A program made the translations under genes and the position numbers. Positions 35,603 to 46,792 of a DNA stretch of 64,000 nucleotides are shown here, piece by piece. This DNA comes from an uncultured Christensenellaceae bacterium (GTDB lineage: Bacteria > Bacillota > Clostridia > Christensenellales > UBA3700). The DNA lies in the NCBI GenBank assembly GCA_944380295.1, contig CALWHE010000008.1, positions 6,233 to 70,232 of the forward strand, in the 5' to 3' direction. The notes under the pieces are model-generated. The model had not been told where the DNA came from, ran no database searches, and saw only the letters and a program-made list of their open reading frames with translations. Within the stretch, counting starts at the first letter, position 1, and each line of letters opens with the position of its first letter.

Positions 35603-35827
35603 GCCGCGCTTGAACGGGAAAACAAGATAAAACAACGCACTTAGGGCGGGGAACAAATTCTCCGCCCCCTTCTTTTCAAGCCGAAAAGCAAAATAAACTT
35701 TGCTTAACATTTGTAAAAATTTAAGCGTATCCCGCCGCGCCCGCGAATTATGCGGAAAAATGCCTTTACTTTTAATGTAAAGATATTGTATAATCGTGCT
35801 ATCAATCGATCCGCGGGGGATATGGTT

Positions 35828-37114
35828 ATGAGAGAAGAAGAGGCAAAAGCCGGCGCACAATATGCTTACGATTACATCAAGGGCATAATCGACAAAACGG
35901 GACCCAGGCTTCCCGGCACGGAAGAAGAGCGGCAGGGCGCCATGCTTACCGCCGAGATAATGGAGGGGATAAGCGGCAAAAAAGCCGTGGTCGAGGAATT
36001 CGACCTGCACCCCAATGCGTCCATCGGCGCCATTCCGGTGGTGGGCGTGCTGGGACTTATCAGCTTTGCGCTGTTCTATCTTTCGCCCATCGCCACGCTG
36101 GTGCTTTCCACGCTGACGCTGCTGTTTGCCGTGGCGCAGATATTTACATACAGCGGCACCTTTGACTTTTTGTTTCCCAAGAAAAAGTCGCAAAACGTCT
36201 GGACCACGATAGATCCGCCCGAAGGGGAAGAGGTCAAATATACCATCTGTTTTTCCGCGCACATGGATTCCTGCTGGTGCTGGAACCACTCCCTGCGCAA
36301 TCCCAAGACCGCCATACCCAAGATAGTCATCGGCATAGTGGGCTTTGTGCTGCTCATCATCATGTCGGCGGTGGCTGTGGGCATAGGCATGTATTCCTTT
36401 ACCACCATCTCCGATCTGGCGGTGAAAACAGAGCTTGCCGGCATGGACATTTTCAAAATAGTCATGTATGTGCTGCCGCTCATCACCGTGCCGGGCAGTT
36501 ACTGGCTGGCGGATTATCTCACCTGGGACAAGACCAAGGCGTCCCCCGGCGCCATGGACAATCTCTCCGGCATAGGCATCTTTTTGGCGTATGCGGAGTA
36601 TGTGAAAGCGCATCCGGAAGTGCGCCCGGAAGGCTGCCGCCTGATGTTTGCCGCCATGGGCGCGGAGGAAGCCAGCCTCAAAGGCTCCTTTGCCTTCTGC
36701 AAACAGCATAAAGACGACGGCATGCTCAAAGACATGTATCACATCAATCTGGACTCTTTCCGCGACGACGAACATTTTGCCGCCGTCATAGGCGACCTGT
36801 GGCTGGGTAGCCGCTTTGACAGAGAGCTGATAGACGCGGGCAAAGAGGCTATGCGTGAAGCGCTGGGAGAGGACGCAACGGAAAAATGCCCTTCGGAAAT
36901 GTTTAACCCGGTGGGCGGCTGCGATTCCACGCCTTTCTGCCGCGCCGGCGTCAAGACCGTGACCCTGGTGGCGCAGAATCCCACTCTGACCAATTATTAC
37001 CACACCAGCAACGATACCGTGGAAGGGCTGAGCATGTATTCCCTGGAAAAGGGCTTTGAAACCGTGGTCAACCTGGTGCCCAAGATAGACGCGCTGGCAA
37101 AAAAACAAAACTGA
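35828..37114 (+). CDS. Membrane-embedded M28-family zinc peptidase/amidohydrolase
   Basis: GPRLPGT, SAHMDS, GAMDNLSG, GAEEA, NLD, YYHT zinc motifs interleaved with about four hydrophobic helices. Confidence 0.82.
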   Translation: MREEEAKAGAQYAYDYIKGIIDKTGPRLPGTEEERQGAMLTAEIMEGISGKKAVVEEFDLHPNASIGAIPVVGVLGLISFALFYLSPIATLVLSTLTLLFAVAQIFTYSGTFDFLFPKKKSQNVWTTIDPPEGEEVKYTICFSAHMDSCWCWNHSLRNPKTAIPKIVIGIVGFVLLIIMSAVAVGIGMYSFTTISDLAVKTELAGMDIFKIVMYVLPLITVPGSYWLADYLTWDKTKASPGAMDNLSGIGIFLAYAEYVKAHPEVRPEGCRLMFAAMGAEEASLKGSFAFCKQHKDDGMLKDMYHINLDSFRDDEHFAAVIGDLWLGSRFDRELIDAGKEAMREALGEDATEKCPSEMFNPVGGCDSTPFCRAGVKTVTLVAQNPTLTNYYHTSNDTVEGLSMYSLEKGFETVVNLVPKIDALAKKQN

Positions 37115-37134
37115 CGGCGCTTTGAGCCGCTTTC

Positions 37135-37167
37135 GACCCGTTCCGCAGGCAGCGGAGCGGGTCTTTT
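37135..37167 (+). terminator. Terminator after the M28 gene
   Basis: GACCCGTTCCGC-AGGCA-GCGGAGCGGGTC followed by TTTT. Confidence 0.75.
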
Positions 37168-37285
37168 GTTTTTGCCGGGCTGCCGCTGCCGGCGGCGCGT
37201 CGATCGCGCGCCTGCCGCGCGGGCGCGGCAAAAAAGGGCGGAACGCCGGCGTCCCGCCTTTTTTCGCGCGCATATATTTTAATCA

Positions 37286-37314
37286 TTGACATGCCGGGCG
37301 ATTTGTGATAAAAT
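37286..37314 (+). promoter_or_regulatory. Strong sigma-A promoter for the aminotransferase cluster
   Basis: TTGACA-17 bp-TAAAAT with TG extension. Confidence 0.8.
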
Positions 37315-37345
37315 ATCGGTATTGATAAAATTCAGGAGGGTCAAT

Positions 37346-39064
37346 ATGAGCGACATCAAAAACTATTCCCTGAGTGAAATCGCTCCCGGAAGAGATTTTT
37401 CCCACTACGGCGTATCCCGTTGGGCAAGCGCCAAAGACATCAACAACAAACTCAAAGAACTGACGGATCAGAACGTATTCTGCATCAGTGACGACGAATA
37501 CAAAAAGATCTGCGCAGAATATTACGACGTCAAGTGCGCCGGCTCCAAAAAGATAACCGGCGAAGCCAAAAAATACATACCCGGCGGCGTGCAGCACAAC
37601 CTGGCGTTCAACAAGCCTTTCCCCATGTGCATGGTCAAGGCGGAGGGCGCCTATCTTTACGACATAGACGGCAACAAGTATACCGACTTTTTGCAGGCGG
37701 GCGGTCCCACCATTTTGGGCAGCAACTTCCCGGAAGTGCAGGAAAAGGCGATAGAGCTGATCAAGGACTGCGGTCCCGTTACCGGTCTGTTCCACGAGGC
37801 GGAGCTGCTGATAGCCAAAGAGATCAACAAGCATATGCCCAACATAGAGATGTTCCGCATGCTGGGCAGCGGCACGGAATCCGTGATGGCGGCGATCCGC
37901 GTGGCGCGCTGCGCAACGCATAAAAAGCGCGTCATCAAGATAGGCGGCGCTTATCACGGCTGGTCCGACCAGATGGTTTACGGCTTGAAGATACCGGGCA
38001 CCAGGCAGTTTTTGGAGAGCTTCGGCATTCCCAACAAGTGCTTTGCGCTGATAGACGAAGTGCAGCCCAACAACCTGGAAATGCTGGAAGATTATCTCAA
38101 AGCCAACCAGCGCAAAGGCGGCACGGCGTGCGTCATCGTGGAACCCGTGGGTCCCGAGAGCGGCACGCGCCCCGTGGATTGGAATTACAACAAGGGCGTG
38201 GAAATGCTCTGCCGCAAATACGGCGCGCTGTTCATCTTTGACGAAGTGGTCACCGGTTTCCGCGTGGGCTTGGGCGGCGCCCAGGGCTTGTTCGACGTGC
38301 ATCCCGATCTGACCATCTTCGGCAAGATAGTGGCGGGCGGTTATCCCGCAGCCGGCGGCGTGGGCGGCAAAGCCGAATACGTCAGCTGCATGGCGGCGGG
38401 CGTTGCCAGCGGCATGAAGAGGGCTTACGTGGGCGGCACCCTGGCTGCCAACCCGCTCTCCGCAATGGCGGGCTATTGCGCCATCAAAGCCATTGCCGAG
38501 CACGACGCCTGCGCCAAGGCGGGCAAGGCGGGCGACAAGCTGACGGACGGCTTGGTCAAGCTGTGCGACAAATACGGGCTGCCTTATGTGGCATACAACC
38601 AAGGCTCCATCGTCCACTTGGAGTGCACGGGCGCGATGAGTTACGACTTCTCCAACAAGTGCCTGCTCAAATCTCTGCTGCCCATTTTGAAGAAGCAGGA
38701 TATGATCTATGTGCGTAAAGAGGCAATGGAGATGATGGGCGCGGCTTACATGTCGCACGGCATCGTCACGCTGGCGGGTTCCAGGCTTTACACTTCCATG
38801 GCGGACACGGACGAGGTCATCGACGAAGCGCTCGACAAGTTTGAAAACGTGTTCAAACTGATCGTGGAGCGCAAAGATCCGATGGAAACTTACGTTGCCA
38901 AGTATAAGAAAGAGCACGGCAAGGACAAGGAAGGCAAAGCCAAGAAGAAAGCGGCAAAGAAGGAAGCCATAGCCAAGCGCAAGGCGGACGGCAAAGTTGC
39001 GGCTCAAAAGGCGACCAAGGATCTGAAAGTCCTCAAAGAAAAGATGAGATCGGCAAAGTGCTGA
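37346..39064 (+). CDS. Class III PLP aminotransferase (HemL/GSA-aminomutase-like) with Lys-rich C-terminal tail
   Basis: IPGGV, AEGAYLYDIDGNKY, SGTE, AYHG, FIFDEVVTGFR, IFGK (PLP lysine), GGTLAANP; RBS AGGAGG. Confidence 0.88.
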   Translation: MSDIKNYSLSEIAPGRDFSHYGVSRWASAKDINNKLKELTDQNVFCISDDEYKKICAEYYDVKCAGSKKITGEAKKYIPGGVQHNLAFNKPFPMCMVKAEGAYLYDIDGNKYTDFLQAGGPTILGSNFPEVQEKAIELIKDCGPVTGLFHEAELLIAKEINKHMPNIEMFRMLGSGTESVMAAIRVARCATHKKRVIKIGGAYHGWSDQMVYGLKIPGTRQFLESFGIPNKCFALIDEVQPNNLEMLEDYLKANQRKGGTACVIVEPVGPESGTRPVDWNYNKGVEMLCRKYGALFIFDEVVTGFRVGLGGAQGLFDVHPDLTIFGKIVAGGYPAAGGVGGKAEYVSCMAAGVASGMKRAYVGGTLAANPLSAMAGYCAIKAIAEHDACAKAGKAGDKLTDGLVKLCDKYGLPYVAYNQGSIVHLECTGAMSYDFSNKCLLKSLLPILKKQDMIYVRKEAMEMMGAAYMSHGIVTLAGSRLYTSMADTDEVIDEALDKFENVFKLIVERKDPMETYVAKYKKEHGKDKEGKAKKKAAKKEAIAKRKADGKVAAQKATKDLKVLKEKMRSAKC

Positions 39065-39129
39065 CACACCAAAACGCGCCTCTCGCAAAGAGGGGCGCGA
39101 ACACTATATAAGCGTAAGCGGAGAAAGAT

Positions 39130-40665
39130 ATGAGCAAATACATAATAGCGCACGACATGGGCACCAGCTCCGACAAAGCCGTGCTCGTGGACTTTGAAGG
39201 GCAGATAATCTCTTCTCAGACGGAACCTTATCCCACTTATTATCCCGCGCCGGCGTTTGTGGAGCAGGATCCCGCCGATTATTGGCGCGCGGTGTGCGAA
39301 GCCACCGCCAAGCTGATGGACAAGACGGGCACGGATCCCGACGACGTGCAGGGCGTGGTGTTTTCCACGCAGGCGATGGGCATAATACCCATAGACAAAT
39401 ACGGCAACGTGCTGCACAACAACATCACCTGGGTAGACGGCAGAGCGGAAAAACAGGCGCAGTCCATCATGAAGAAGTTGGGCGGCAAGCGCATTTTCAC
39501 CCTGCTTGCCGGCACGCCCATCATGGGTAAAGACGTGGTGGCAAAGCTGATCTGGCTGAAAGAGGAGATGCCCAGCGTTTATAACGACGCCAAATACTTT
39601 TTGGACGTGAACGGCTTTTTGAAGTTCAAGTGCACGGGCGAGGCGGTGGCGGAATATTCCGGTGCGTCTTCTTACGGCTTGGACACCAAAAAGAAGAAGT
39701 GGCTGGGTGCGCTCAAACTCACGGGCATAGACATGAAAAAGCTGCCTCCGCTGGTGAAGAGCACGGATATGGTGGGCAACGGACTTACCGAAGAAGCGGC
39801 AAAGGCGATGAAGCTCAATCCCGGCACGCCCGTGTTCGGCGGCTGTGACGACACGCAGGCGGCGGCGCTCGGTTCGGGCATGAACGGAGAGGGCGACATA
39901 CACATTTATCTGGGCACTTCCGCCTGGGTGGGCGCCACCTCTTCCACGGAGACCAAGTTCAAGCACGGCGCGGCGGCGATACAGAGCGCGGACATAAACA
40001 TGAACCTCATCGTGGGAGTGACGGAGGCTGCCGGTTCCAATCTGGAATGGATAAAAAATCAATTCTTCAAAAAGGAAGCGGAAGAGCTGGGCAGCGGCAT
40101 ATACGACTATATGGACAGCGTGATAGAGCATATCCCCGCGGGCAGCGAATATCTCATCTGCACGCCCTGGATGCTGGGCGAGCGCTGCCCCGTGTCTTCC
40201 ACCACCACCAGAAGCACGCTCTTCAACATCGATCCCCGCCACACGCGCGAACATCTCATGCGCGCCGTGTATGAGGGCATAGGATACAATCTGCGCTGGA
40301 TCTTGGAAAACTTCAAAAAGGATTACGGCTTCGGCGGCAGAAAGTTCAGGATAATCGGCGGCGGCGCCATGAACAAAGCCTGGATGCAGATGATCGCCGA
40401 CATCACGGACAACGAGTTCGCCGTGGTGCAGAACACGCGCAACGCGGGCGCCTTGGGCGCAGCCATCATCGCGCTGATAGGGCTGGGTGAGATCAAGGGA
40501 TTTTCCGAAGTCAAACGCTTTGTCAAAGAGGAAAAGACTTATCGTCCCAACCCCGCCAACAGGTATATATACGACGAGCAGTTCCAAAATTACAAGCGCA
40601 TCTATTACAGCCTGAACAAGGCGTATAAATTGGCAAATTCCAACAGATTCGAAGGAGATGAATGA
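39130..40665 (+). CDS. FGGY-family carbohydrate kinase (xylulokinase-like)
   Basis: AHDMGTSSDK, EQDP, WVDGRA, GGCDDTQAA, LGTS, LGERCP, AVYEG, IIGGGA. Confidence 0.92.
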   Translation: MSKYIIAHDMGTSSDKAVLVDFEGQIISSQTEPYPTYYPAPAFVEQDPADYWRAVCEATAKLMDKTGTDPDDVQGVVFSTQAMGIIPIDKYGNVLHNNITWVDGRAEKQAQSIMKKLGGKRIFTLLAGTPIMGKDVVAKLIWLKEEMPSVYNDAKYFLDVNGFLKFKCTGEAVAEYSGASSYGLDTKKKKWLGALKLTGIDMKKLPPLVKSTDMVGNGLTEEAAKAMKLNPGTPVFGGCDDTQAAALGSGMNGEGDIHIYLGTSAWVGATSSTETKFKHGAAAIQSADINMNLIVGVTEAAGSNLEWIKNQFFKKEAEELGSGIYDYMDSVIEHIPAGSEYLICTPWMLGERCPVSSTTTRSTLFNIDPRHTREHLMRAVYEGIGYNLRWILENFKKDYGFGGRKFRIIGGGAMNKAWMQMIADITDNEFAVVQNTRNAGALGAAIIALIGLGEIKGFSEVKRFVKEEKTYRPNPANRYIYDEQFQNYKRIYYSLNKAYKLANSNRFEGDE

Positions 40666-41258
40666 TGAACGAAAAACTCAAAGATTCCGTATCGATGTAT
40701 TTCGACAGGCTCAGAGAATACGGTCTGCACGGCAACGGCGATTCCGTTTCCGTCCGTGCGGAAGGAGGTATGTATTTCGTGGACAACACGCGCGAGGTCA
40801 AATTTATCCCCGCGGGCAAGGCGGACGGAGAGGCGGCGCTGCATGAGGGCATATATGCCGCCACCGACGCGCAGGCGGTGGTGCACGCGCATCCCGATTA
40901 CGTCAACGCCGTATCCAAAGCGGGCGTGACCATACCCGCCGTGATAGACGACATGGCGCAGATAGTGGGTCCCACCTGCCGCACGGCAAATGACGCCGCG
41001 GCGGCGGCAAAAGAGCTGAAAAAGCGCAATTCCTGCCTGATAAAAGAAGACGGCGCCGTCACCACCGGCAGGACGCTGAACGAAGCGTTCACCTGCATGA
41101 TGGTGCTGCAAAAGGCGGCGATCTGCCTGGTGAGCGGCAGCGTGCTGGGCGGCAACGTGGTTATCAACGGCTTGGAAGCGCGCCTGATGAGGTTTGTCTA
41201 CAAGAAGAAATACAGCAAGATAAACACGGAAAACAATCTGGAAAGGGAGGGCAAATAA
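40662..41258 (+). CDS. Class II aldolase/adducin-family protein, degenerate
   Basis: EAALH..IY, VVHAHP present. NHG motif appears as EDG and the N-terminal GN motif is absent. Confidence 0.75.
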   Translation: MMNEKLKDSVSMYFDRLREYGLHGNGDSVSVRAEGGMYFVDNTREVKFIPAGKADGEAALHEGIYAATDAQAVVHAHPDYVNAVSKAGVTIPAVIDDMAQIVGPTCRTANDAAAAAKELKKRNSCLIKEDGAVTTGRTLNEAFTCMMVLQKAAICLVSGSVLGGNVVINGLEARLMRFVYKKKYSKINTENNLEREGK

Positions 41259-41921
41259 ATGAGCTGGAGCAAAGAAGAAGAACAGCGCCTGCGCCAAGTG
41301 GTAAAAGACAGCGGCGTAAAGCTCCTCAAAGAAAATCTGGTGCAGGGCACCTGGGGCAACATGGCGCAAAGACTGGACAAGGAATACATGCTGGTCACGC
41401 CCACCGGCTTGGACTATGAAGCCCTCACTCCCGAGGATATGCCCGTGGTGAGCATTGTCGATCCCAAAGTTTGGAGCAACGGCAAAAAGCCCACTTCCGA
41501 GCGCAAGATACACGCGTTTCTGATGCTCAATCGTCAGGAGATAAACGCAACCATCCACTCCCACCCTTATTACGGCTCCATTTTCGCCTCCGCGCGCAAA
41601 GAACTGCCCGAAGAGGTGATGACGGAAGAGGAGAAAAAGTTGCTGGGCGGCAGCGTGCGCGTGGGCGCTTACGGCTTGCCGGGCACCAAAAAGCTCAAAG
41701 AAGGCACGGTAAAAGCCATGGAAGGGCGCAACGCCTGCTTTATGGCAAACCACGGCGTGTTCTGCGCGGGCAAAGACATGGAAGAGGCTTTTGAGATAAT
41801 CCGTTGTCTGGAACGCGTGTGCAAGAGGTATATAGAGCAGCTCACCGTCAAAGCCACCGGCGCAAAGGAATACAGCGACGAGCTTTTGTTTGAATATTTT
41901 ATAGAAAAGTGCGGGAAGTGA
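41259..41921 (+). CDS. Class II aldolase (FucA/AraD-like)
   Basis: GTWGN, VTPTG, PTSERKIH, HSH, LPGT, MANHG: all zinc and phosphate motifs present. Confidence 0.9.
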   Translation: MSWSKEEEQRLRQVVKDSGVKLLKENLVQGTWGNMAQRLDKEYMLVTPTGLDYEALTPEDMPVVSIVDPKVWSNGKKPTSERKIHAFLMLNRQEINATIHSHPYYGSIFASARKELPEEVMTEEEKKLLGGSVRVGAYGLPGTKKLKEGTVKAMEGRNACFMANHGVFCAGKDMEEAFEIIRCLERVCKRYIEQLTVKATGAKEYSDELLFEYFIEKCGK

Positions 41922-42337
41922 TAGACCCGGAAAAGGCGGAGCGGCTCAATCCGCTGACGTTGGCGTTTGTGGGCGACAGCGTGCAGACTCTCTATGTCCG
42001 CACCCGCCTGGCGGCGCGTTCGGACGTGAAAAGCGGCGCGCTGCACGTGAGCGCGGCGGCGATAATAAACGCGTCCGCGCAGGCGAGGGCGGCGGAAGAG
42101 CTGCTGCCGCAGCTGCAAGGGGCGGAGGCGGACATATACCGCCGCGCCCGCAATGCCCGCACCGCGCACAAGGCGAAAAACGCCGACATCGCCGATTATC
42201 ACAAGGCAAGCGGGTTGGAGGCGGTGATAGGCTACCTCTATCTCACGGGCAACGATGAAAGACTGGAATATATTCTGAACGCCGCTTTTGCCGGCGGAAA
42301 AAAGGAGGACGCATGCCACAAGTCAAACCTCACGTAG
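41918..42337 (+). CDS. mrnC: Mini-ribonuclease III
   Basis: PLTLAFVGDSV, ASAQA, YRRARNA, YHKASGLEAVIGYLYL. Confidence 0.93.
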   Translation: MIDPEKAERLNPLTLAFVGDSVQTLYVRTRLAARSDVKSGALHVSAAAIINASAQARAAEELLPQLQGAEADIYRRARNARTAHKAKNADIADYHKASGLEAVIGYLYLTGNDERLEYILNAAFAGGKKEDACHKSNLT

Positions 42338-43065
42338 TTTTGCTCACATACACAAAAGATCCGGCGCAGACCATTGCCATGTCCGCCAAGTTGTGTTATT
42401 CGGACGCCACCATAGAAGATCTGAAAAGGGGCGTGGACGAGAGCGACGTGTCCAAGTTTTTGGCGCGCCTTGTCACCATGGGGCATCTTTCCCCCTTTGA
42501 ACACGCCTCATTCACCTTTGGCATAGAGGGCGTTTCGCGCAGTTTTCTGGCGCAGGTGACCAGGCACAGGATAGCCTCTTTTTCCGTCAAATCGCAGCGG
42601 TATGTTGACGCCAACAAGAGCGGAGAATTCAATTATGTGATCCCGCCGGCGATAAGTGCGCTGGGACGGGAGGCGGAAGAGGAATTCAAGGAGCAGATGA
42701 GCCTCATGCACGGGTGGTATTGCAAGTGGCAGGAAGCGCTGGGCGGAGCGTGCGAAAAGTCCAACGAGGACGCGCGCTTTGTGCTGCCCAACGCCGCGGA
42801 GACCAAGATGACCATGACCATGAACGTGCGCGAGCTGATGCACTTTTTCACCGTGCGCTGCTGCAACCGCGCGCAATGGGAGATCAGAGAAGTTGCCTGG
42901 CGCATGCTTGAAGAAGTGCTCAAAGTGGCGCCGGAACTTTTTGTCACGGCGGGACCTTCCTGCGTGCGCGGCGCGTGCGGCGAGGGCAAGATGACTTGCG
43001 GCAAACCGCTTGAAGTGCGGGCAAAGCGCGAGGAGCTGAACAAAAAGATCGCGGAGAACAAATAA
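42313..43065 (+). CDS. thyX: FAD-dependent thymidylate synthase
   Basis: GHLSPFEH, QVTRHRIASFSVKSQRY, EDARFVLPNA, RAQWEIR. Confidence 0.95.
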   Translation: MPQVKPHVVLLTYTKDPAQTIAMSAKLCYSDATIEDLKRGVDESDVSKFLARLVTMGHLSPFEHASFTFGIEGVSRSFLAQVTRHRIASFSVKSQRYVDANKSGEFNYVIPPAISALGREAEEEFKEQMSLMHGWYCKWQEALGGACEKSNEDARFVLPNAAETKMTMTMNVRELMHFFTVRCCNRAQWEIREVAWRMLEEVLKVAPELFVTAGPSCVRGACGEGKMTCGKPLEVRAKREELNKKIAENK

Positions 43066-43781
43066 TGTTGATAGAAGGAAAAAACGCCGTGCGCGAGCAT
43101 TTGAGCGCGGGGGGCACGCTTTCGCGCCTCTATGTGCAAAAGGGGCTGCACGGCGCGGAAGAGCTGGTGGAAAAGGCGAGAGCCGCCGGCGCGAGAGTGG
43201 TTTTTTGCGAGCGGCGCGAGCTGGACAAGCTGTGCGGCGCGGACAAGCACCGCGGCATTGCCGGCGTTGCCGACGAATACGCGTATTGCGAGGTGCGCGA
43301 CATCGTCAAGAGCGCGCGCGACAAGGGCGAAAAACTCTTTATGCTCATCTTGGACGGCATAGAAGATCCGCACAATCTGGGCAGCATCATCAGAGCGGCG
43401 GAGTGCGCGGGCGTGCACGGCATAGTCATACCTGGCAGGCGCGCGGTGGGCGTGAACGCCACGGTGATAAAGGTGTCTTCCGGGGCGGCGGCGCACATGA
43501 AGATAGCGCGCGTGACCAACGTCAACGACGTGATAAGAATGCTCAAAGAGGAATTTGTCACCGTGCTTTGCGCGGACATGGCGGGGCAGGACGTATACAA
43601 GACCGATCTCACGGGCGATCTGGCGCTGGTGATAGGCAGCGAGGGCTTCGGCGTGAAATCGCTCACGGCAAAGCTGTGCGACGCGGCGGTATCTCTGCCG
43701 CAGAAGGGCAAGATAAATTCGCTCAATGCGTCCGTTGCCTGCGGCGTGCTGTGTTATGAGGTGCTGAGGCAGAGAAGATGA
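43065..43781 (+). CDS. rlmB: 23S rRNA Gm2251 methyltransferase
   Basis: IEGKNAVRE, LDGIEDPHNLGSIIR, IGSEG, INSLNASVA. Confidence 0.92.
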   Translation: MLIEGKNAVREHLSAGGTLSRLYVQKGLHGAEELVEKARAAGARVVFCERRELDKLCGADKHRGIAGVADEYAYCEVRDIVKSARDKGEKLFMLILDGIEDPHNLGSIIRAAECAGVHGIVIPGRRAVGVNATVIKVSSGAAAHMKIARVTNVNDVIRMLKEEFVTVLCADMAGQDVYKTDLTGDLALVIGSEGFGVKSLTAKLCDAAVSLPQKGKINSLNASVACGVLCYEVLRQRR

Positions 43782-44320
43782 GCGAAAAGGAACTGCTGCG
43801 CCTGGCGGCGGAGGGTGACAGCCGCGCCATGGAAAGCCTGCTTACCGCATACATGGGCATGGTCAAGGCGCAGGCGCGCCGCTACTATATCGTGGGCGCC
43901 ACTTATGAAGACGCTTCGCAGGAAGGCATGATCGGGCTTTACAAGGCGATCAGCACATACAAAGAGGAAAAGGGCAAATTTTCCGCGTATGCATACGCCT
44001 GCGTGAAGGCGGCGATATTGGACGCGGTGAAGGCGGCGTCAAGAGAGAAAAACAGACCGCTGAACAATTACGTGCCGCTGGACAAAACGGAACTGGTGGC
44101 GGAAGAAGACCTCACGGAGGGCTTGGACGGCGGAGAGATAACGGAGAAGATATGCGCCTGTCTTTCACAGGCGGAGAGCAGGATATTCTCACTTTGGGCA
44201 GACGGCATGAGTTATGCCGAGATCGCGCAAGAGGTGAAAAAAAGCGTTAAATATGTGGATAACGCTTTGCAGCGTATCAGACGCAAGGCAAAAAAAGTCT
44301 TGGGCAGGGAGGAGCTATGA
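43778..44320 (+). CDS. sigH: RNA polymerase sigma-H factor
   Basis: QEGMIGLYKAI, R..N.PLN.YV.LD, GMSYAEIA, VDNALQRIRRK; canonical position after rlmB. Confidence 0.88.
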   Translation: MSEKELLRLAAEGDSRAMESLLTAYMGMVKAQARRYYIVGATYEDASQEGMIGLYKAISTYKEEKGKFSAYAYACVKAAILDAVKAASREKNRPLNNYVPLDKTELVAEEDLTEGLDGGEITEKICACLSQAESRIFSLWADGMSYAEIAQEVKKSVKYVDNALQRIRRKAKKVLGREEL

Positions 44321-45543
44321 AAAAAAAGACCGCAGCCGTTCTCACGGCGGTGCTGATAGCGGTGATAGCCGCGGCGGCAGTTTTGGGCGCGTGCACGAGC
44401 GCGACCGTGACGCTTGTATTGGACGGCGGCATTTATAACGGCAGCGACGAAAACGTGGTGCTGAGCGTGAGCGGCGGAGAACTGGATCTGGGCGAATATC
44501 TGCCGCAGAAAGACGGCGCGCAGATAAGCGGCTGGACGGATGAAGACGGCAACTTTTACGGCGCGCATTCCCTCATCACCGCCACGGACGGGCTTACGCT
44601 CACCGCGGTGTTCGAAGGCGTGCTCGAATATACGCGCGTAGACGGCGGTTACAGCGTTTCCGCCACGCCCGGCTTTAAGGGCGTGAACGTGGTGATACCC
44701 GCGCAGGTGGACGGCATAGACGTGGTGGAAGTGGCGGAAAACGCCTTCAAGGACTGCACTTCCGTTAAAACGCTGCTCATACCGGACAGCGTCAAGTCCA
44801 TCGGCAGGGGCGCGCTTGCCGGCTGCACTTCTTTGGAAAGTCTGATCACGCCTTTTGCCGGCGCAAGTGCGGATATCACCGATCAAAGCAACATGGGCAT
44901 GTCGTATGTCTTCGGGTCGTCCGGCGGATCGAGTTGGAGCGGTCATTATCCGGCGCTTACCGCCATTTCCGTGACGGACGCCGCCACGAGCATACCGCAG
45001 GGCGCCTTTGAAAACATGAAAAATTTGCAGACGGTCAATCTGGGCGCCAATATCACGAGCATCGGCGGCAGCGCCTTTTCCGGCTGCACTTCTTTGAAAA
45101 AGATAGTTCTGCCCGAAAAGTGCGTGAGCATAGGCGCATATGCTTTCCGTGGCTGCACGGCGGCGGAGATAACCGTCAACGGCGCGATAACACAGCTGGG
45201 AGGGAGTGCGTTTTTCTCCGCCGGAGTGATAAAGCAGATAACGCTGGGAGAAGGTTTGACGGTCATACCGCTCAATTGTTTTGTGGGCAGCGGACTGGAA
45301 AAGATAACCTTTTCTTCCACGGTGACCACGGTGCAGTCTTCCGCTTTCCGCGACTGCACGCGTTTGACGGACGTGACGGTGAGTTCCGCCGTGACGCTTA
45401 ATTCGAGCGCATTCAGCGGCTGCGGCAGGCTGGAAAACAGCGGGCTCCACTTCTCCGCCAACGGCAAATTCGTGCTTGCAGAGGGCGCGGAAAACGTCTT
45501 TGAGGGGACAAAAGTGGACACAGACGCGCTTTTTAACGCTTAA
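44317..45543 (+). CDS. BspA-type leucine-rich-repeat lipoprotein
   Basis: Lipobox LGAC; repeats AFKDCTSV..IPDSVKSIG, AFSGCTSL, AFRGC. Confidence 0.85.
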   Translation: MKKKTAAVLTAVLIAVIAAAAVLGACTSATVTLVLDGGIYNGSDENVVLSVSGGELDLGEYLPQKDGAQISGWTDEDGNFYGAHSLITATDGLTLTAVFEGVLEYTRVDGGYSVSATPGFKGVNVVIPAQVDGIDVVEVAENAFKDCTSVKTLLIPDSVKSIGRGALAGCTSLESLITPFAGASADITDQSNMGMSYVFGSSGGSSWSGHYPALTAISVTDAATSIPQGAFENMKNLQTVNLGANITSIGGSAFSGCTSLKKIVLPEKCVSIGAYAFRGCTAAEITVNGAITQLGGSAFFSAGVIKQITLGEGLTVIPLNCFVGSGLEKITFSSTVTTVQSSAFRDCTRLTDVTVSSAVTLNSSAFSGCGRLENSGLHFSANGKFVLAEGAENVFEGTKVDTDALFNA

Positions 45544-45574: not shown

Positions 45575-46792
45575 ATGAACGTATTTTACAAGATGTATTG
45601 CAGGACCTTTCAGGCGGTGCTCAAACAGCTCATCAAATTGATGCCCTGGCGCAAGCCGGAGCTGTTGCAGTTCGATAACGGCGCGGCGGGACTTGCCGCC
45701 TTCGTCAAGAGCAAGGGCATGGAGCGCGTGCTGGTGGTGACGGACGGCAACCTGATGAAGTTGGGGCTGTGCGCGCCCATGCTGGAAGCGATGGAAAAAG
45801 AAGGCGTCAAGGCTGCGGTGTTCGACAAGGTCGTCGCCAACCCCACCATAGACAACGTGGAAGAAGCGCTTGCGCTCTACAAGGAGAGCGGCGCGCAGGG
45901 CATCATCGCCTTCGGCGGCGGTTCGCCCATGGACTGCGCCAAGGGCGTGGGCGCGCGCGTGGCGCGTCCCAAAAAGAGCATTCCCAAGATGAAGGGCATT
46001 TTGAAAGTGGTCAAAAAAATGCCGCCCTTCTTCGCCATTCCCACCACTTCGGGCACGGGCAGTGAAACCACGCTGGCGGCGGTCATCACGGATACCACCG
46101 ATCCGCAGCGTCACCTCAAATATGCCATTCAGGACTTTCCGCTCATTCCCCATTACGCGGTGCTGGACGCTTCTCTGACGGCGGGTCTGCCGCAAAAGGT
46201 CACGTCCACCACGGGCATGGACGCGCTCTGCCACGCGGTGGAAGCTTATATCGGCAATTCCAACACCAAAGAGACCAAGCAAAAGGCGGAAGAAGCGGTC
46301 AAGCTCATCTTTACATATCTCAAACGCGCCTATGACAACGGCAAGGATATGGAAGCCAGACGGAACATGCAGACGGCGGCGTTCGACGCGGGCGTGGCGT
46401 TCACGCGCGCTTACGTGGGCAACGTGCACGCCATGGGTCACGCCATGGGCGCGCGCTTCAACACTCCCCACGGGCTTGCCATGGCGGTCATTCTGCCGCA
46501 CATGCTGGACTTTTACGGCGCCAAGATATACAAAAAGTTGGCAAAGCTGGCGGACGTCGTGGGTATAACGGGCGCGGACGATGAGGCAAAAGCCAAGGCG
46601 TTCATTCAGGCGATCAAGGATATGAACGCTTATATGCAGATACCGGAAAACTTCGGCGGCATCATCAAGGAAGAAGACGCCAAGATCATGAGCGAAGCCG
46701 CTTACAAAGAGGCGAATCCGCTCTATCCCGTCCCCGTGATGATGGGCAGAGAAGACTTTGTGAAAATGTATTTAGAGGTGCTTAACGGCTGA
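45575..46792 (+). CDS. Iron-containing alcohol dehydrogenase
   Basis: ANPT, FGGGSPMD, IPTTSGTGSE, GMDALCHAVE, VHAMGH, PHG. Confidence 0.93.
   Translation: MNVFYKMYCRTFQAVLKQLIKLMPWRKPELLQFDNGAAGLAAFVKSKGMERVLVVTDGNLMKLGLCAPMLEAMEKEGVKAAVFDKVVANPTIDNVEEALALYKESGAQGIIAFGGGSPMDCAKGVGARVARPKKSIPKMKGILKVVKKMPPFFAIPTTSGTGSETTLAAVITDTTDPQRHLKYAIQDFPLIPHYAVLDASLTAGLPQKVTSTTGMDALCHAVEAYIGNSNTKETKQKAEEAVKLIFTYLKRAYDNGKDMEARRNMQTAAFDAGVAFTRAYVGNVHAMGHAMGARFNTPHGLAMAVILPHMLDFYGAKIYKKLAKLADVVGITGADDEAKAKAFIQAIKDMNAYMQIPENFGGIIKEEDAKIMSEAAYKEANPLYPVPVMMGREDFVKMYLEVLNG

Follow-up and report, generated by a model that had tools for sequence, protein, structure and literature searches.

Among the described systems, the pathways for L-fucose (FucI-FucK-FucA-FucO) and L-rhamnose (RhaA-RhaB-RhaD) come closest to a gene cluster that we analysed in a stretch of 64,000 nt (the window; CALWHE010000008.1 positions 6,233-70,232, assembly GCA_944380295.1) from an uncultured Christensenellaceae bacterium, whose genome (G000) is 1.75 Mb in size and 96.6 % complete. 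The cluster resembles these pathways in having an FGGY kinase followed by a zinc enzyme of the class II aldolase fold, with a FucO-type iron-dependent alcohol dehydrogenase (Fe-ADH) nearby, and the products expected are likewise dihydroxyacetone phosphate (DHAP) and an aldehyde. A second point of reference is the degradation of fumonisin. According to the published account (PMC3136697), the aminotransferase FumI takes the C2 amine off hydrolysed fumonisin B1, a compound analogous to sphinganine, and hands it to pyruvate. An earlier sequence-only reading of the window had listed in this region an M28 hydrolase, a HemL-like enzyme dependent on pyridoxal 5′-phosphate (PLP), an FGGY kinase, two class II aldolases and an Fe-ADH, and had assigned them to the catabolism of an amino-polyol. 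We assigned gene identities in the window with Pfam and NCBIfam profile searches, and all the listed genes were recovered. The PLP enzyme is called AT3 here and the two class II aldolase-fold genes AldA and AldB. AT3, the FGGY kinase, AldA and AldB form a conserved module, of which the M28 hydrolase is a member, and this module is real and widespread in gut Clostridia. We found no description of it in the literature, as judged by title and abstract and with subscription journals outside the coverage. New here are the co-inheritance of M28, the architecture of AldA and AldB and the fatty-acid-auxotroph background.

Co-inheritance was followed in a set of 61 genomes of relatives, G000 included, with thresholds of E <= 1e-180 for AT3 orthologs and E <= 1e-70 for M28 orthologs. 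AT3 was present in 30 of the 61 genomes, and a fragment at a contig edge in G003 was set aside. The M28 ortholog was found in 29 of the 30 AT3-positive genomes and in 0 of 30 AT3-negative relatives, in which the best match (6.6e-35) is at the level of paralogs. Three of the four carriers outside the window's family also have it, beside AT3 in G058 and on another contig than AT3 in G051 and G057. At least one joint loss of AT3 and M28 took place within a genus (G017 versus G022, G027 and G032). Within the family, an FGGY kinase of type 1 or of a second type (34-38 % identity) tracks AT3 (27/27 versus 0/10), and 10 of the 37 family genomes (G000 included) have no module.

The gene order tells a similar story. 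Of the 14 relatives for which we fetched the surrounding stretch, 10 have AT3, FGGY, AldA and AldB in synteny, two more lack only the kinase and two have only one Ald match. In 10 of the 14 fetched stretches the distance between M28 and AT3 is no more than about 1 kb, and in nine of these 10 the two genes are divergent; the co-directional arrangement is seen only in the window's genus. We further examined 80 species loci, drawn from at least 580 matching stretches (species genomes). AldA and AldB were both located within 7 kb of AT3 at 47 of these loci and FGGY at 45, a TetR regulator was present at 39, and M28 was divergent from or adjacent to AT3 at 22, including six where it shows 24-27 % identity and is still divergent. 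An Fe-ADH was seen at only five loci, three of them from the window's own genus. At 31 loci neither a kinase nor an aldolase accompanied AT3 in the stretch examined; in most of them AT3 stands behind a TetR gene, and five of these AT3-only genomes encode a fused aldolase, the type 2 FGGY and M28 homologs elsewhere in the genome. Of 400 genomes sampled evenly across the phylum, six were carriers, and in all six AT3, the FGGY kinase and the aldolase pair stand together. The module is patchy in the phylum and the clustering of its genes is far beyond chance. The sequence-only reading had named lack of joint conservation as grounds for its own rejection; the enzyme genes proved to be conserved together, and the association that it had seen between M28 and the PLP gene is borne out by both the co-inheritance and the conserved divergent arrangement.

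The conserved core is made up of a PLP enzyme of the amine/carbonyl type, a kinase and a zinc-dependent enolising enzyme that carries a phosphate site, and it fits a route from an amine through a ketone and a phosphate to DHAP and an aldehyde. We infer every chemical step, and the substrate as well, and consider the general scheme of amine-to-ketone conversion, phosphorylation and C-C cleavage to be reasonably probable. M28, at the inner face of the membrane, would free the amine from an amide-linked precursor. The FGGY kinase would phosphorylate the C1 hydroxyl and AT3 would pass the amine at C2 on to a 2-oxo acid, in one order or the other, and the product of both would be a 1-phospho-2-keto-3,4-diol. 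AldB and AldA together could then make a retro-aldol cut of the FucA type between C3 and C4, with AldB giving the zinc, the phosphate site and a Glu, and AldA the Asp-Asp loop and a Tyr/Lys tail. An Fe-ADH might reduce the resulting aldehyde, and other lineages might instead oxidise it with a class 3 aldehyde dehydrogenase (ALDH).

Regarding AT3, the protein matches PF00202 with 181 bits against a gathering score of 30.5, and its best NCBIfam models are those of HemL, with scores below both cut-offs (TIGR00713 and NF000818; 266.5 versus 527.3 and 284.9 versus 398). The closest solved structures are glutamate-1-semialdehyde aminomutases (GSAM; about E 1e-57), and D-phenylglycine aminotransferase is also near. 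K327 aligns to the PLP lysine of GSAM and is invariant in 14/14 family members. The Arg which binds the substrate carboxylate in GSAM (motif GGVNSPVRAF) is replaced by a gap in AT3 (GGVQHNL-AFN), and the replacement motif PGGVQHNLAFN is invariant in 14 diverse members of the AT3 family. AT3 is further extended by about 65 aa at its N-terminus and ends in a Lys-rich C-terminal tail of 57 aa (residues 516-572; 38891-39061) with 22 K+R and 7 D+E. The tail is restricted to the window's family, where AT3 measures 541-608 aa as compared with about 498-520 aa elsewhere; membrane or nucleic-acid binding is a possible role for it. A profile of δ-aminolevulinate dehydratase (ALAD, PF00490) that matched 11/14 control genomes had no match in G000, which is 96.6 % complete; this agrees with the absence of tetrapyrrole genes claimed before. 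The view of AT3 as an ordinary HemL standing among unrelated sugar genes draws on its best NCBIfam and PDB matches and is for practical purposes refuted by the sub-cut-off scores, the lost substrate Arg, the missing ALAD match and the strict co-inheritance and clustering with kinase, aldolase and M28. We therefore rejected AT3 as a true HemL, and on its sequence features it is best described as a HemL-like enzyme that has left tetrapyrrole synthesis, as had been proposed. AT3 identity is 56-95 % across genera and orders, and the closest named relatives come from uncultured Christensenellales-type Clostridia of animal guts, with 93 % identity to a metagenome-assembled genome from chicken gut. 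In one genome of the same genus (G006:C1:5271-6973; L031, L056) AT3 was matched in two parts that overlap (residues 1-190 and residues 179-569), the first with a TAA counted in it; a frameshift, a pseudogene and an assembly error would each explain it.

The two aldolase-fold genes differ strikingly in what they conserve. In AldB, N34, E81, H100, H102 and H165 are invariant in 61/61 members, T47 is kept in 57/61 and S80 in 56/61. Alignment to FucA (1dzw, 4c25) shows that the metal, phosphate and Glu residues are retained and that there is no equivalent of Tyr113; the corresponding region of AldB contains an insertion. In FucA the Tyr113 loop comes from the neighbouring subunit. The score of AldB for the FucA equivalog TIGR01086 is 70.5, below the cut-off of 400.25. 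AldA has no phosphate motifs, its third His is changed to Asp with the third ligand variable across members, and the HxH histidines are kept in just 21 and 19 of 62 members. Conserved in AldA are instead D96 (58/62), D97 (62/62), Y180 (62/62) and K183-Y184-S185-K186 (56-59/62): the Asp-Asp loop sits exactly at the position of FucA Tyr113 and the Y...KYSK tail is C-terminal. Natural AldB-AldA fusions of 371-421 aa with two PF00596 stretches occur in L144-L148 and L161-L165; fused genes are found in Acutalibacteraceae-type genomes and in five of the six carriers of the phylum-wide sample, and environmental relatives have a single aldolase gene instead of the pair. Because of these fusions and the complementary conservation of residues we read AldA and AldB as one enzyme, in which AldB is probably catalytic and AldA a non-catalytic partner subunit that, in the heteromer we infer, would complete the AldB active site. 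Both of the FucA-like aldolases listed earlier carry PF00596, and they are better counted as one putative heteromeric enzyme with a catalytic AldB and a degenerate AldA.

Two open frames of 905 and 899 aa (L161 and L162) had the appearance of AT3-aldolase fusions and were rejected as such, as one stop divides two in-frame genes. In three Acutalibacteraceae-type loci (L146-L148; G062, G065, G061) the fused AldB-AldA gene is located between mreB-mreC-(mreD)-PBP2 and a ComM/YifB-like gene of the Mg-chelatase family, far from the TetR-AT3 pair.

The FGGY kinase scores above the gathering score for both PF00370 (169.7 bits) and PF02782 (98.6 bits), and its best model is XylB (TIGR01312), with 320.5 below the cut-off of 380.25. 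In other lineages the type 1 kinase is swapped in the same cluster for a second FGGY type with 30-37 % identity. The kinase and the aldolase-fold pair are the proteins on which an AraB/AraD-like pathway could be based. In such a pathway the PLP enzyme would convert an amino-pentitol or an amino-sugar to a pentulose, the kinase would act at C5, and AldB/AldA would be a 4-epimerase or isomerase leading to xylulose 5-phosphate, with no C-C cleavage and no aldehyde. XylB being the best kinase model speaks for it, as do the scores against the L-ribulose-5-phosphate 4-epimerase and FucA models (105.6 versus 121.8 bits for AldB, 130.9 versus 129.8 for the fused protein). The epimerase AraD uses an Asp and a Tyr (Asp120′, Tyr229′), which the invariant Asp-Asp loop and Tyr tail of AldA recall. 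On the other hand, AldB has the Glu of the FucA type in 61/61 members where AraD has Asp, the recurrent ALDH3 and Fe-ADH neighbours imply an aldehyde, and the membrane and lipid-carrier partners would be left without a role, and we consider the epimerase pathway very unlikely. Apart from the module, G000 has on another contig one more gene of the class II aldolase fold, about 2 kb from a further FGGY kinase gene (G000:C10:9332-12644), and the two probably belong to an ordinary pentose or deoxyhexose pathway.

The M28 protein was matched by PF04389 with 69.2 bits versus a cut-off of 21.3. Its longest open reading frame (ORF) spans 35750-37114, and as the promoter-like site of the gene falls inside this longer frame, the true start is probably ATG 35822 or 35828; the sequence-only reading had used the second of these ATGs. 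The ligands of the co-catalytic zinc site characteristic of the M28 family (His, Asp, Glu-Glu, Asp, His) are complete, and H147, D149, D246, E282, E283, D311 and H394 are invariant in 21/21 orthologs down to 26 % identity. The alignment comprises 21 of 23 rows, L054 and L061 having been left out for in-frame stops caused by the upstream extension of their coordinates. Four hydrophobic segments were modelled by AlphaFold2 as helices (70-85, 89-108, 161-187 and 207-230; pLDDT 89.1, pTM 0.86), forming two helical hairpins inserted into an intact M28 core, in agreement with the membrane-embedded nature ascribed to the protein before. The inserted hairpins were not seen among the solved relatives in the fold-search results. 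No signal peptide was found in M28, and the K/R-rich flanks of the hydrophobic segments sit on the side of the catalytic domain. From these two features we place the catalytic domain in the cytoplasm, and the protein is probably a dinuclear-zinc domain anchored on the cytoplasmic side of the membrane. Its top matches by fold are M28 aminopeptidases (BSAP 6hc7, E 4.6e-11; AM-1; SGAP) and glutaminyl cyclases, and a search of the ESM Atlas with M28 returned generic M28 clusters and nothing more specific. G000 encodes a second membrane-type M28 paralog (C6:79550-80740, 28 % identity), and similar paralogs are present in most relatives, module carriers or not.

Further information comes from the genes that accompany the module in other lineages. 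We counted them over 185 loci, which are overlapping sets and not independent. A class 3 ALDH directly adjoins the module at 8 of the 185 loci in several lineages, two of these proteins being 51 % identical to each other. The closest solved relatives of these two are ALDH3A1 and the fatty aldehyde dehydrogenase 4qgk (E 2.7e-113). L041, L079 and L106 have an Fe-ADH next to the module. Because ALDH3 and Fe-ADH neighbours recur in unrelated lineages, an aldehyde is a likely product of the pathway, as the sequence-only reading had expected. The Fe-ADH of the window stands downstream on the same strand, as had been noted, and it is not specific to the module: an ortholog with at least 49 % identity is found in nearly all carriers but also in 7/30 non-carriers (G008, G011, G017, G026, G050, G056, G060), and we rejected in part the idea of a dedicated module member. 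Its best model is lactaldehyde reductase (294 versus a cut-off of 523).

A kinase, a class III PLP enzyme and an aldehyde dehydrogenase or reductase also make up a known pattern in which a phospho-lyase turns an O-phospho-amino-alcohol into an aldehyde by elimination of phosphate and ammonia; known examples are ETNPPL and the mycobacterial aminopropanol-phosphate phospho-lyase. Were AT3 such an enzyme, the ethanolamine-transporter-like MFS protein embedded in some loci would be in its place and the aldolase-fold protein would have a side role. We give this alternative a very slim chance, as it leaves the strictly conserved and catalytically intact AldB (61/61) unexplained, AT3 is closest to GSAM and D-phenylglycine aminotransferase rather than to phospho-lyases, and no FGGY kinase is known from that route.

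Regarding the substrate of the amine-to-DHAP scheme, several features of the loci hint at something lipophilic. A GtrA membrane protein (PF04138) is embedded in 41/185 loci, usually in the order TetR-FGGY2-AldB-AldA-GtrA-AT3. A stand-alone SCP2 protein is found within the module in L243 and L245. Alpha/beta hydrolases stand beside module genes in L084-type loci, L125, L144, L235 and L239. Together with the membrane M28 and the TetR regulators, these proteins, the hydrolases being of the lipase type, may indicate a lipophilic substrate, and the fatty-aldehyde type of the ALDH, the absence of a transporter from most clusters and the polybasic tail of AT3 also point to one that is lipid-like. Among sphingoid bases only the trihydroxy, phytosphingosine-type bases fit, because the retro-aldol cut needs hydroxyls at C3 and C4. 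Such bases dominate in plants and yeasts, and a plant or yeast origin fits the herbivore and poultry gut sources of the genomes related through AT3. Dietary, host or microbial sphingolipids could all supply the substrate. We tentatively propose, with somewhat less than even confidence, that the general scheme acts on an amphiphilic, long-chain, lipid-like 2-amino-1,3,4-triol such as a phytosphingosine-type base. The phytosphingosine idea of the sequence-only reading is thus upheld in so far as lipid-type accessory genes accompany the module and the base fits the scheme; the identity of the substrate and the action of the transaminase at C2 remain predictions.

The composition of the two loci with SCP2, both environmental and different from the window, is worth giving in full. 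The environmental locus L243 (2915-9969) contains an APC permease, AT3, the stand-alone SCP2 (138 aa), a type 2 FGGY and a RuBisCO-like protein, the last in the place of the class II aldolase. L245 (3868-15680) is one string of a single class II aldolase, SCP2, AT3, MFS, GFO/IDH/MocA oxidoreductase, GH4, GH31, MFS and FGGY, in which the GH31, next to GH4, ends in a C-terminal SCP2 domain. Glycosidases with a lipid-carrier domain suggest processing of glycolipids in L245.

A number of observations weigh against the lipid substrate or against the scheme as a whole. The relatives are not independent, and independent events are far fewer than the co-occurrence counts. In Acutalibacteraceae-type genomes the components of the module are scattered. 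By score the kinase is nearest to XylB, which acts at C5, and not to the C1 kinases FucK and RhaB (320 versus 122 and 70 bits), and to our knowledge soluble sugars are the only known substrates of FGGY kinases and class II aldolases. AldB lacks the FucA Tyr113 and AldA offers Asp and Tyr, as AraD does, so that AldB may act as an epimerase; a dehydratase is a further alternative to an aldolase. The fold neighbours of M28 are aminopeptidases and not N-acyl amidases, and the FucO-like Fe-ADH points to short aldehydes. SCP2 was found in just 2/185 loci. Sphinganine and sphingosine do not fit the retro-aldol step, which needs the 4-hydroxyl. An MFS transporter is embedded in 4/185 loci, with the FLVCR1/2 choline/ethanolamine transporters as its best solved relatives (E 4e-40); this FLVCR-like protein and the weakly BetI-like TetR of L114 would suit a small soluble amino-alcohol.

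The same scheme could indeed act on a small soluble amino-polyol or amino-alcohol, for example a 2-amino-2-deoxy-pentitol or -hexitol, 2-amino-1,3,4-butanetriol or a compound related to serinol or ethanolamine, giving DHAP and a short aldehyde (glycolaldehyde, lactaldehyde) that the FucO-like Fe-ADH would reduce. In effect this would be a FucK/FucA/FucO pathway with a transaminase replacing the isomerase. The XylB-like kinase, the ADH resembling lactaldehyde reductase, the embedded MFS and the APC permease of L243 all agree with it, the core enzyme families being all classical families of soluble-sugar enzymes. We nevertheless regard a small solute as unlikely. Most clusters have no transporter and the regulators are TetR proteins, never of a sugar type; TetR is the regulator in five of the six phylum-sample loci. 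Searches of PDB and NCBIfam for the ligand class of TetR gave weak and mostly HTH-level matches (BetI 55 bits, FadR 42 bits). SCP2, GtrA, the membrane M28 and the class 3 ALDH are hard to reconcile with a polar solute, and we know of no abundant natural small 2-amino-polyol in guts.

GtrA could be taken in yet another direction. Known GtrA proteins are flippases of polyprenyl-phosphate sugars, and their presence in the loci, the position of the fused AldB-AldA next to mreBCD and PBP2 in L146-L148, and the high conservation and housekeeping surroundings of the module in the window's family would suit the biosynthesis or remodelling of a cell-envelope amine. This could be an amino-polyol phosphate or an amino-lipid head group, with the aldolase and the PLP enzyme working toward the amine and GtrA or M28 handling a lipid-linked product. 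We find this highly improbable. Near-module ORFs sent to Pfam included no nucleotidyl-, glycosyl- or acyl-transferase, and also no isomerase or sugar-type regulator. An ATP-dependent kinase and aldehyde dehydrogenases suit catabolism, TetR is typical of inducible genes, and the distribution is patchy both in the phylum (6/400) and within the family (10/37 genomes without the module).

Returning to catabolism of a lipid-like base, we inspected the lipid metabolism of the carriers. Ketoacyl-ACP synthase (PF00109) was found in 0/36 family relatives and not in G000, with a control of 14/14 reference genomes; the other families of the order have it in 8/24 genomes. The window's family thus looks like a group of obligate fatty-acid auxotrophs and, as it lacks ketoacyl synthase, scavenging of exogenous lipid is expected. 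As a correlate of the module the auxotrophy was rejected, because the synthase is missing from all 37 family genomes, carriers and non-carriers alike. Neutral ceramidase (PF04734) had no match in G000, with a profile that also matched 0/14 control genomes. In its boldest form, our proposal is that bacteria break down trihydroxy sphingoid bases (phytosphingosine from plants, yeasts and epithelia) with this module, a route missing so far: M28 would be a membrane-embedded 'ceramidase' of a new kind, FGGY and AT3 would produce a lipid 'ketose 1-phosphate', the heteromeric zinc aldolase would split it into DHAP and a C15 fatty aldehyde, and variants with the RuBisCO-like protein would serve related bases. 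In this complete form we consider it doubtful.

The layout of the locus in the window is summarized in Table 1. The region begins with an iPGM gene and its terminator upstream of M28, which forms a separate unit with its own promoter-like site and strong terminator. The strong promoter reported ahead of the PLP gene was confirmed, and it is followed by an AGGAGG ribosome-binding site and ATG 37346. Because of this near-consensus promoter, the AGGAGG and the ATG, we read TTG 37286, the start chosen by the ORF caller, as the -35 box and AT3 as a protein of 572 aa. The 3′ end of the kinase gene and the start of AldA overlap by 4 bases and AldB abuts AldA. Further downstream AldB overlaps Mini-III, and the co-directional string, tightly packed with frames that overlap or abut, continues through the leucine-rich repeat (LRR) protein, the Fe-ADH, a PHP protein and UDG; a terminator scan gave no convincing candidate on the + strand within the string from Mini-III to UDG, and the metabolic module may be co-transcribed with the housekeeping genes downstream. 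Between iPGM and Mini-III no isomerase or transporter was found with Pfam in the window cluster, as had been claimed; the part about the transporter does not extend to other lineages, where the FLVCR-like MFS or GtrA is embedded in the clusters. RNA evidence came from four runs, as contigs throughout. Contigs from metatranscriptome X1 give depth in all 30 bins, and single contigs cover 38603-41236 (3′ end of AT3, FGGY and AldA) and 41727-43928; such contigs can show neither transcripts, ends nor levels, and the gaps in coverage between 35652 and 35815 and after 37114 are given no weight. Three long ORFs on the opposite strand, none with a Pfam match, are probably artefacts of the composition of a purine-rich coding strand.

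Table 1. Features of the module region and its surroundings (positions in the window)
Feature	Position	Strand	Evidence or remark
Promoter-like site of the M28 gene	35765-35794	+	TTTACT-18-TATAAT, 10/12 consensus matches
M28 metallohydrolase, membrane-anchored, 430 aa	35822-37114	+	PF04389
Intrinsic terminator after M28	37135-37163	+	12-bp stem, 9 GC pairs, then T-run
Operon promoter, sigma-70-type	37286-37314	+	TTGACA-17-TGnTAAAAT, 11/12 matches, extended -10
AT3, HemL-like class III PLP enzyme, 572 aa	37346-39064	+	PF00202
FGGY kinase, XylB-like (type 1)	39130-40665	+	PF00370 + PF02782
AldA, degenerate class II aldolase-fold gene	40662-41258	+	partial PF00596, 62 bits
AldB, FucA-like class II aldolase-fold gene	41259-41921	+	PF00596, 147 bits
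Mini-III, ThyX, SpoU-type methylase, ECF-like sigma factor, BspA-type LRR protein	41909-45543		3′ of AldB
Fe-ADH, FucO-like	45575-46792	+	PF00465 + PF25137; 3.65 kb past AldB
Antisense ORF, 1125 aa	33896-37273	-	opposite iPGM/M28
Antisense ORF, 601 aa	37283-39088	-	opposite AT3
Antisense ORF, 527 aa	39004-40587	-	opposite FGGY

If the proposed reading is true, a common and conserved module of gut and rumen Clostridia would represent an undescribed breakdown of sphingolipid backbones or another amino-polyol, with enzyme families of sugar pathways working on a substrate that is not a sugar. The phytosphingosine route in particular would give carbon, nitrogen and ready-made lipid chains to the fatty-acid-auxotrophic Christensenellales and their relatives, and would turn such bacteria into major consumers of sphingolipids from diet and host. 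The consumption of sphingoid bases, bioactive lipids of host and diet, by gut bacteria is an open question that four to five soluble proteins now make directly testable. Whatever the substrate, the AldB/AldA heteromer, the HemL-like enzyme outside tetrapyrrole synthesis and the M28 with two membrane hairpins are new targets for enzymology, and caution is advised in annotating these proteins as HemL, xylulokinase or fuculose-phosphate aldolase.

Compared with the L-fucose and L-rhamnose pathways, the module has an enzyme of the PLP aminotransferase fold in the place of the isomerase, and a kinase that is XylB-like rather than FucK- or RhaB-like. Its aldolase would be heteromeric, without Tyr113 and with a degenerate partner. 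Its regulators are TetR proteins, and the genes that accompany it (M28, GtrA, SCP2 and ALDH3) are of membrane or lipid-related types. AT3 shares with HemL/GSAM the fold and the PLP lysine and differs in its scores below the cut-offs, the absence of the carboxylate-binding Arg, the N-terminal extension, the polybasic tail and the lack of tetrapyrrole context. As in AraB-AraD, an FGGY kinase goes with an enzyme of the class II aldolase fold that receives Asp and Tyr from the subunit next to it; unlike there, AldB keeps the Glu of the FucA type, the partner is a separate degenerate subunit and aldehyde-handling enzymes recur nearby. Eukaryotic breakdown of sphingoid bases (long-chain base kinase, sphingosine-1-phosphate lyase, ALDH3A2/Hfd1) also includes C1 phosphorylation, a PLP enzyme and the delivery of a fatty aldehyde to a class 3 ALDH. 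In that route the PLP enzyme itself cuts C2-C3 to release phosphoethanolamine and the kinase is DAGK-like, whereas here an FGGY kinase is present and a metal aldolase is proposed to cut C3-C4 and release DHAP. The fumonisin route of Sphingopyxis sp. MTA144 (FumD esterase, FumI aminotransferase; PMC3136697) is similar in that a hydrolase unmasks a sphinganine-like amino-polyol whose C2 amine is then converted to a 2-ketone with pyruvate. It belongs to aerobic Proteobacteria, the available part of its account describes no kinase or aldolase step, and FumI is likened to AT3 by its reaction and not by its sequence.

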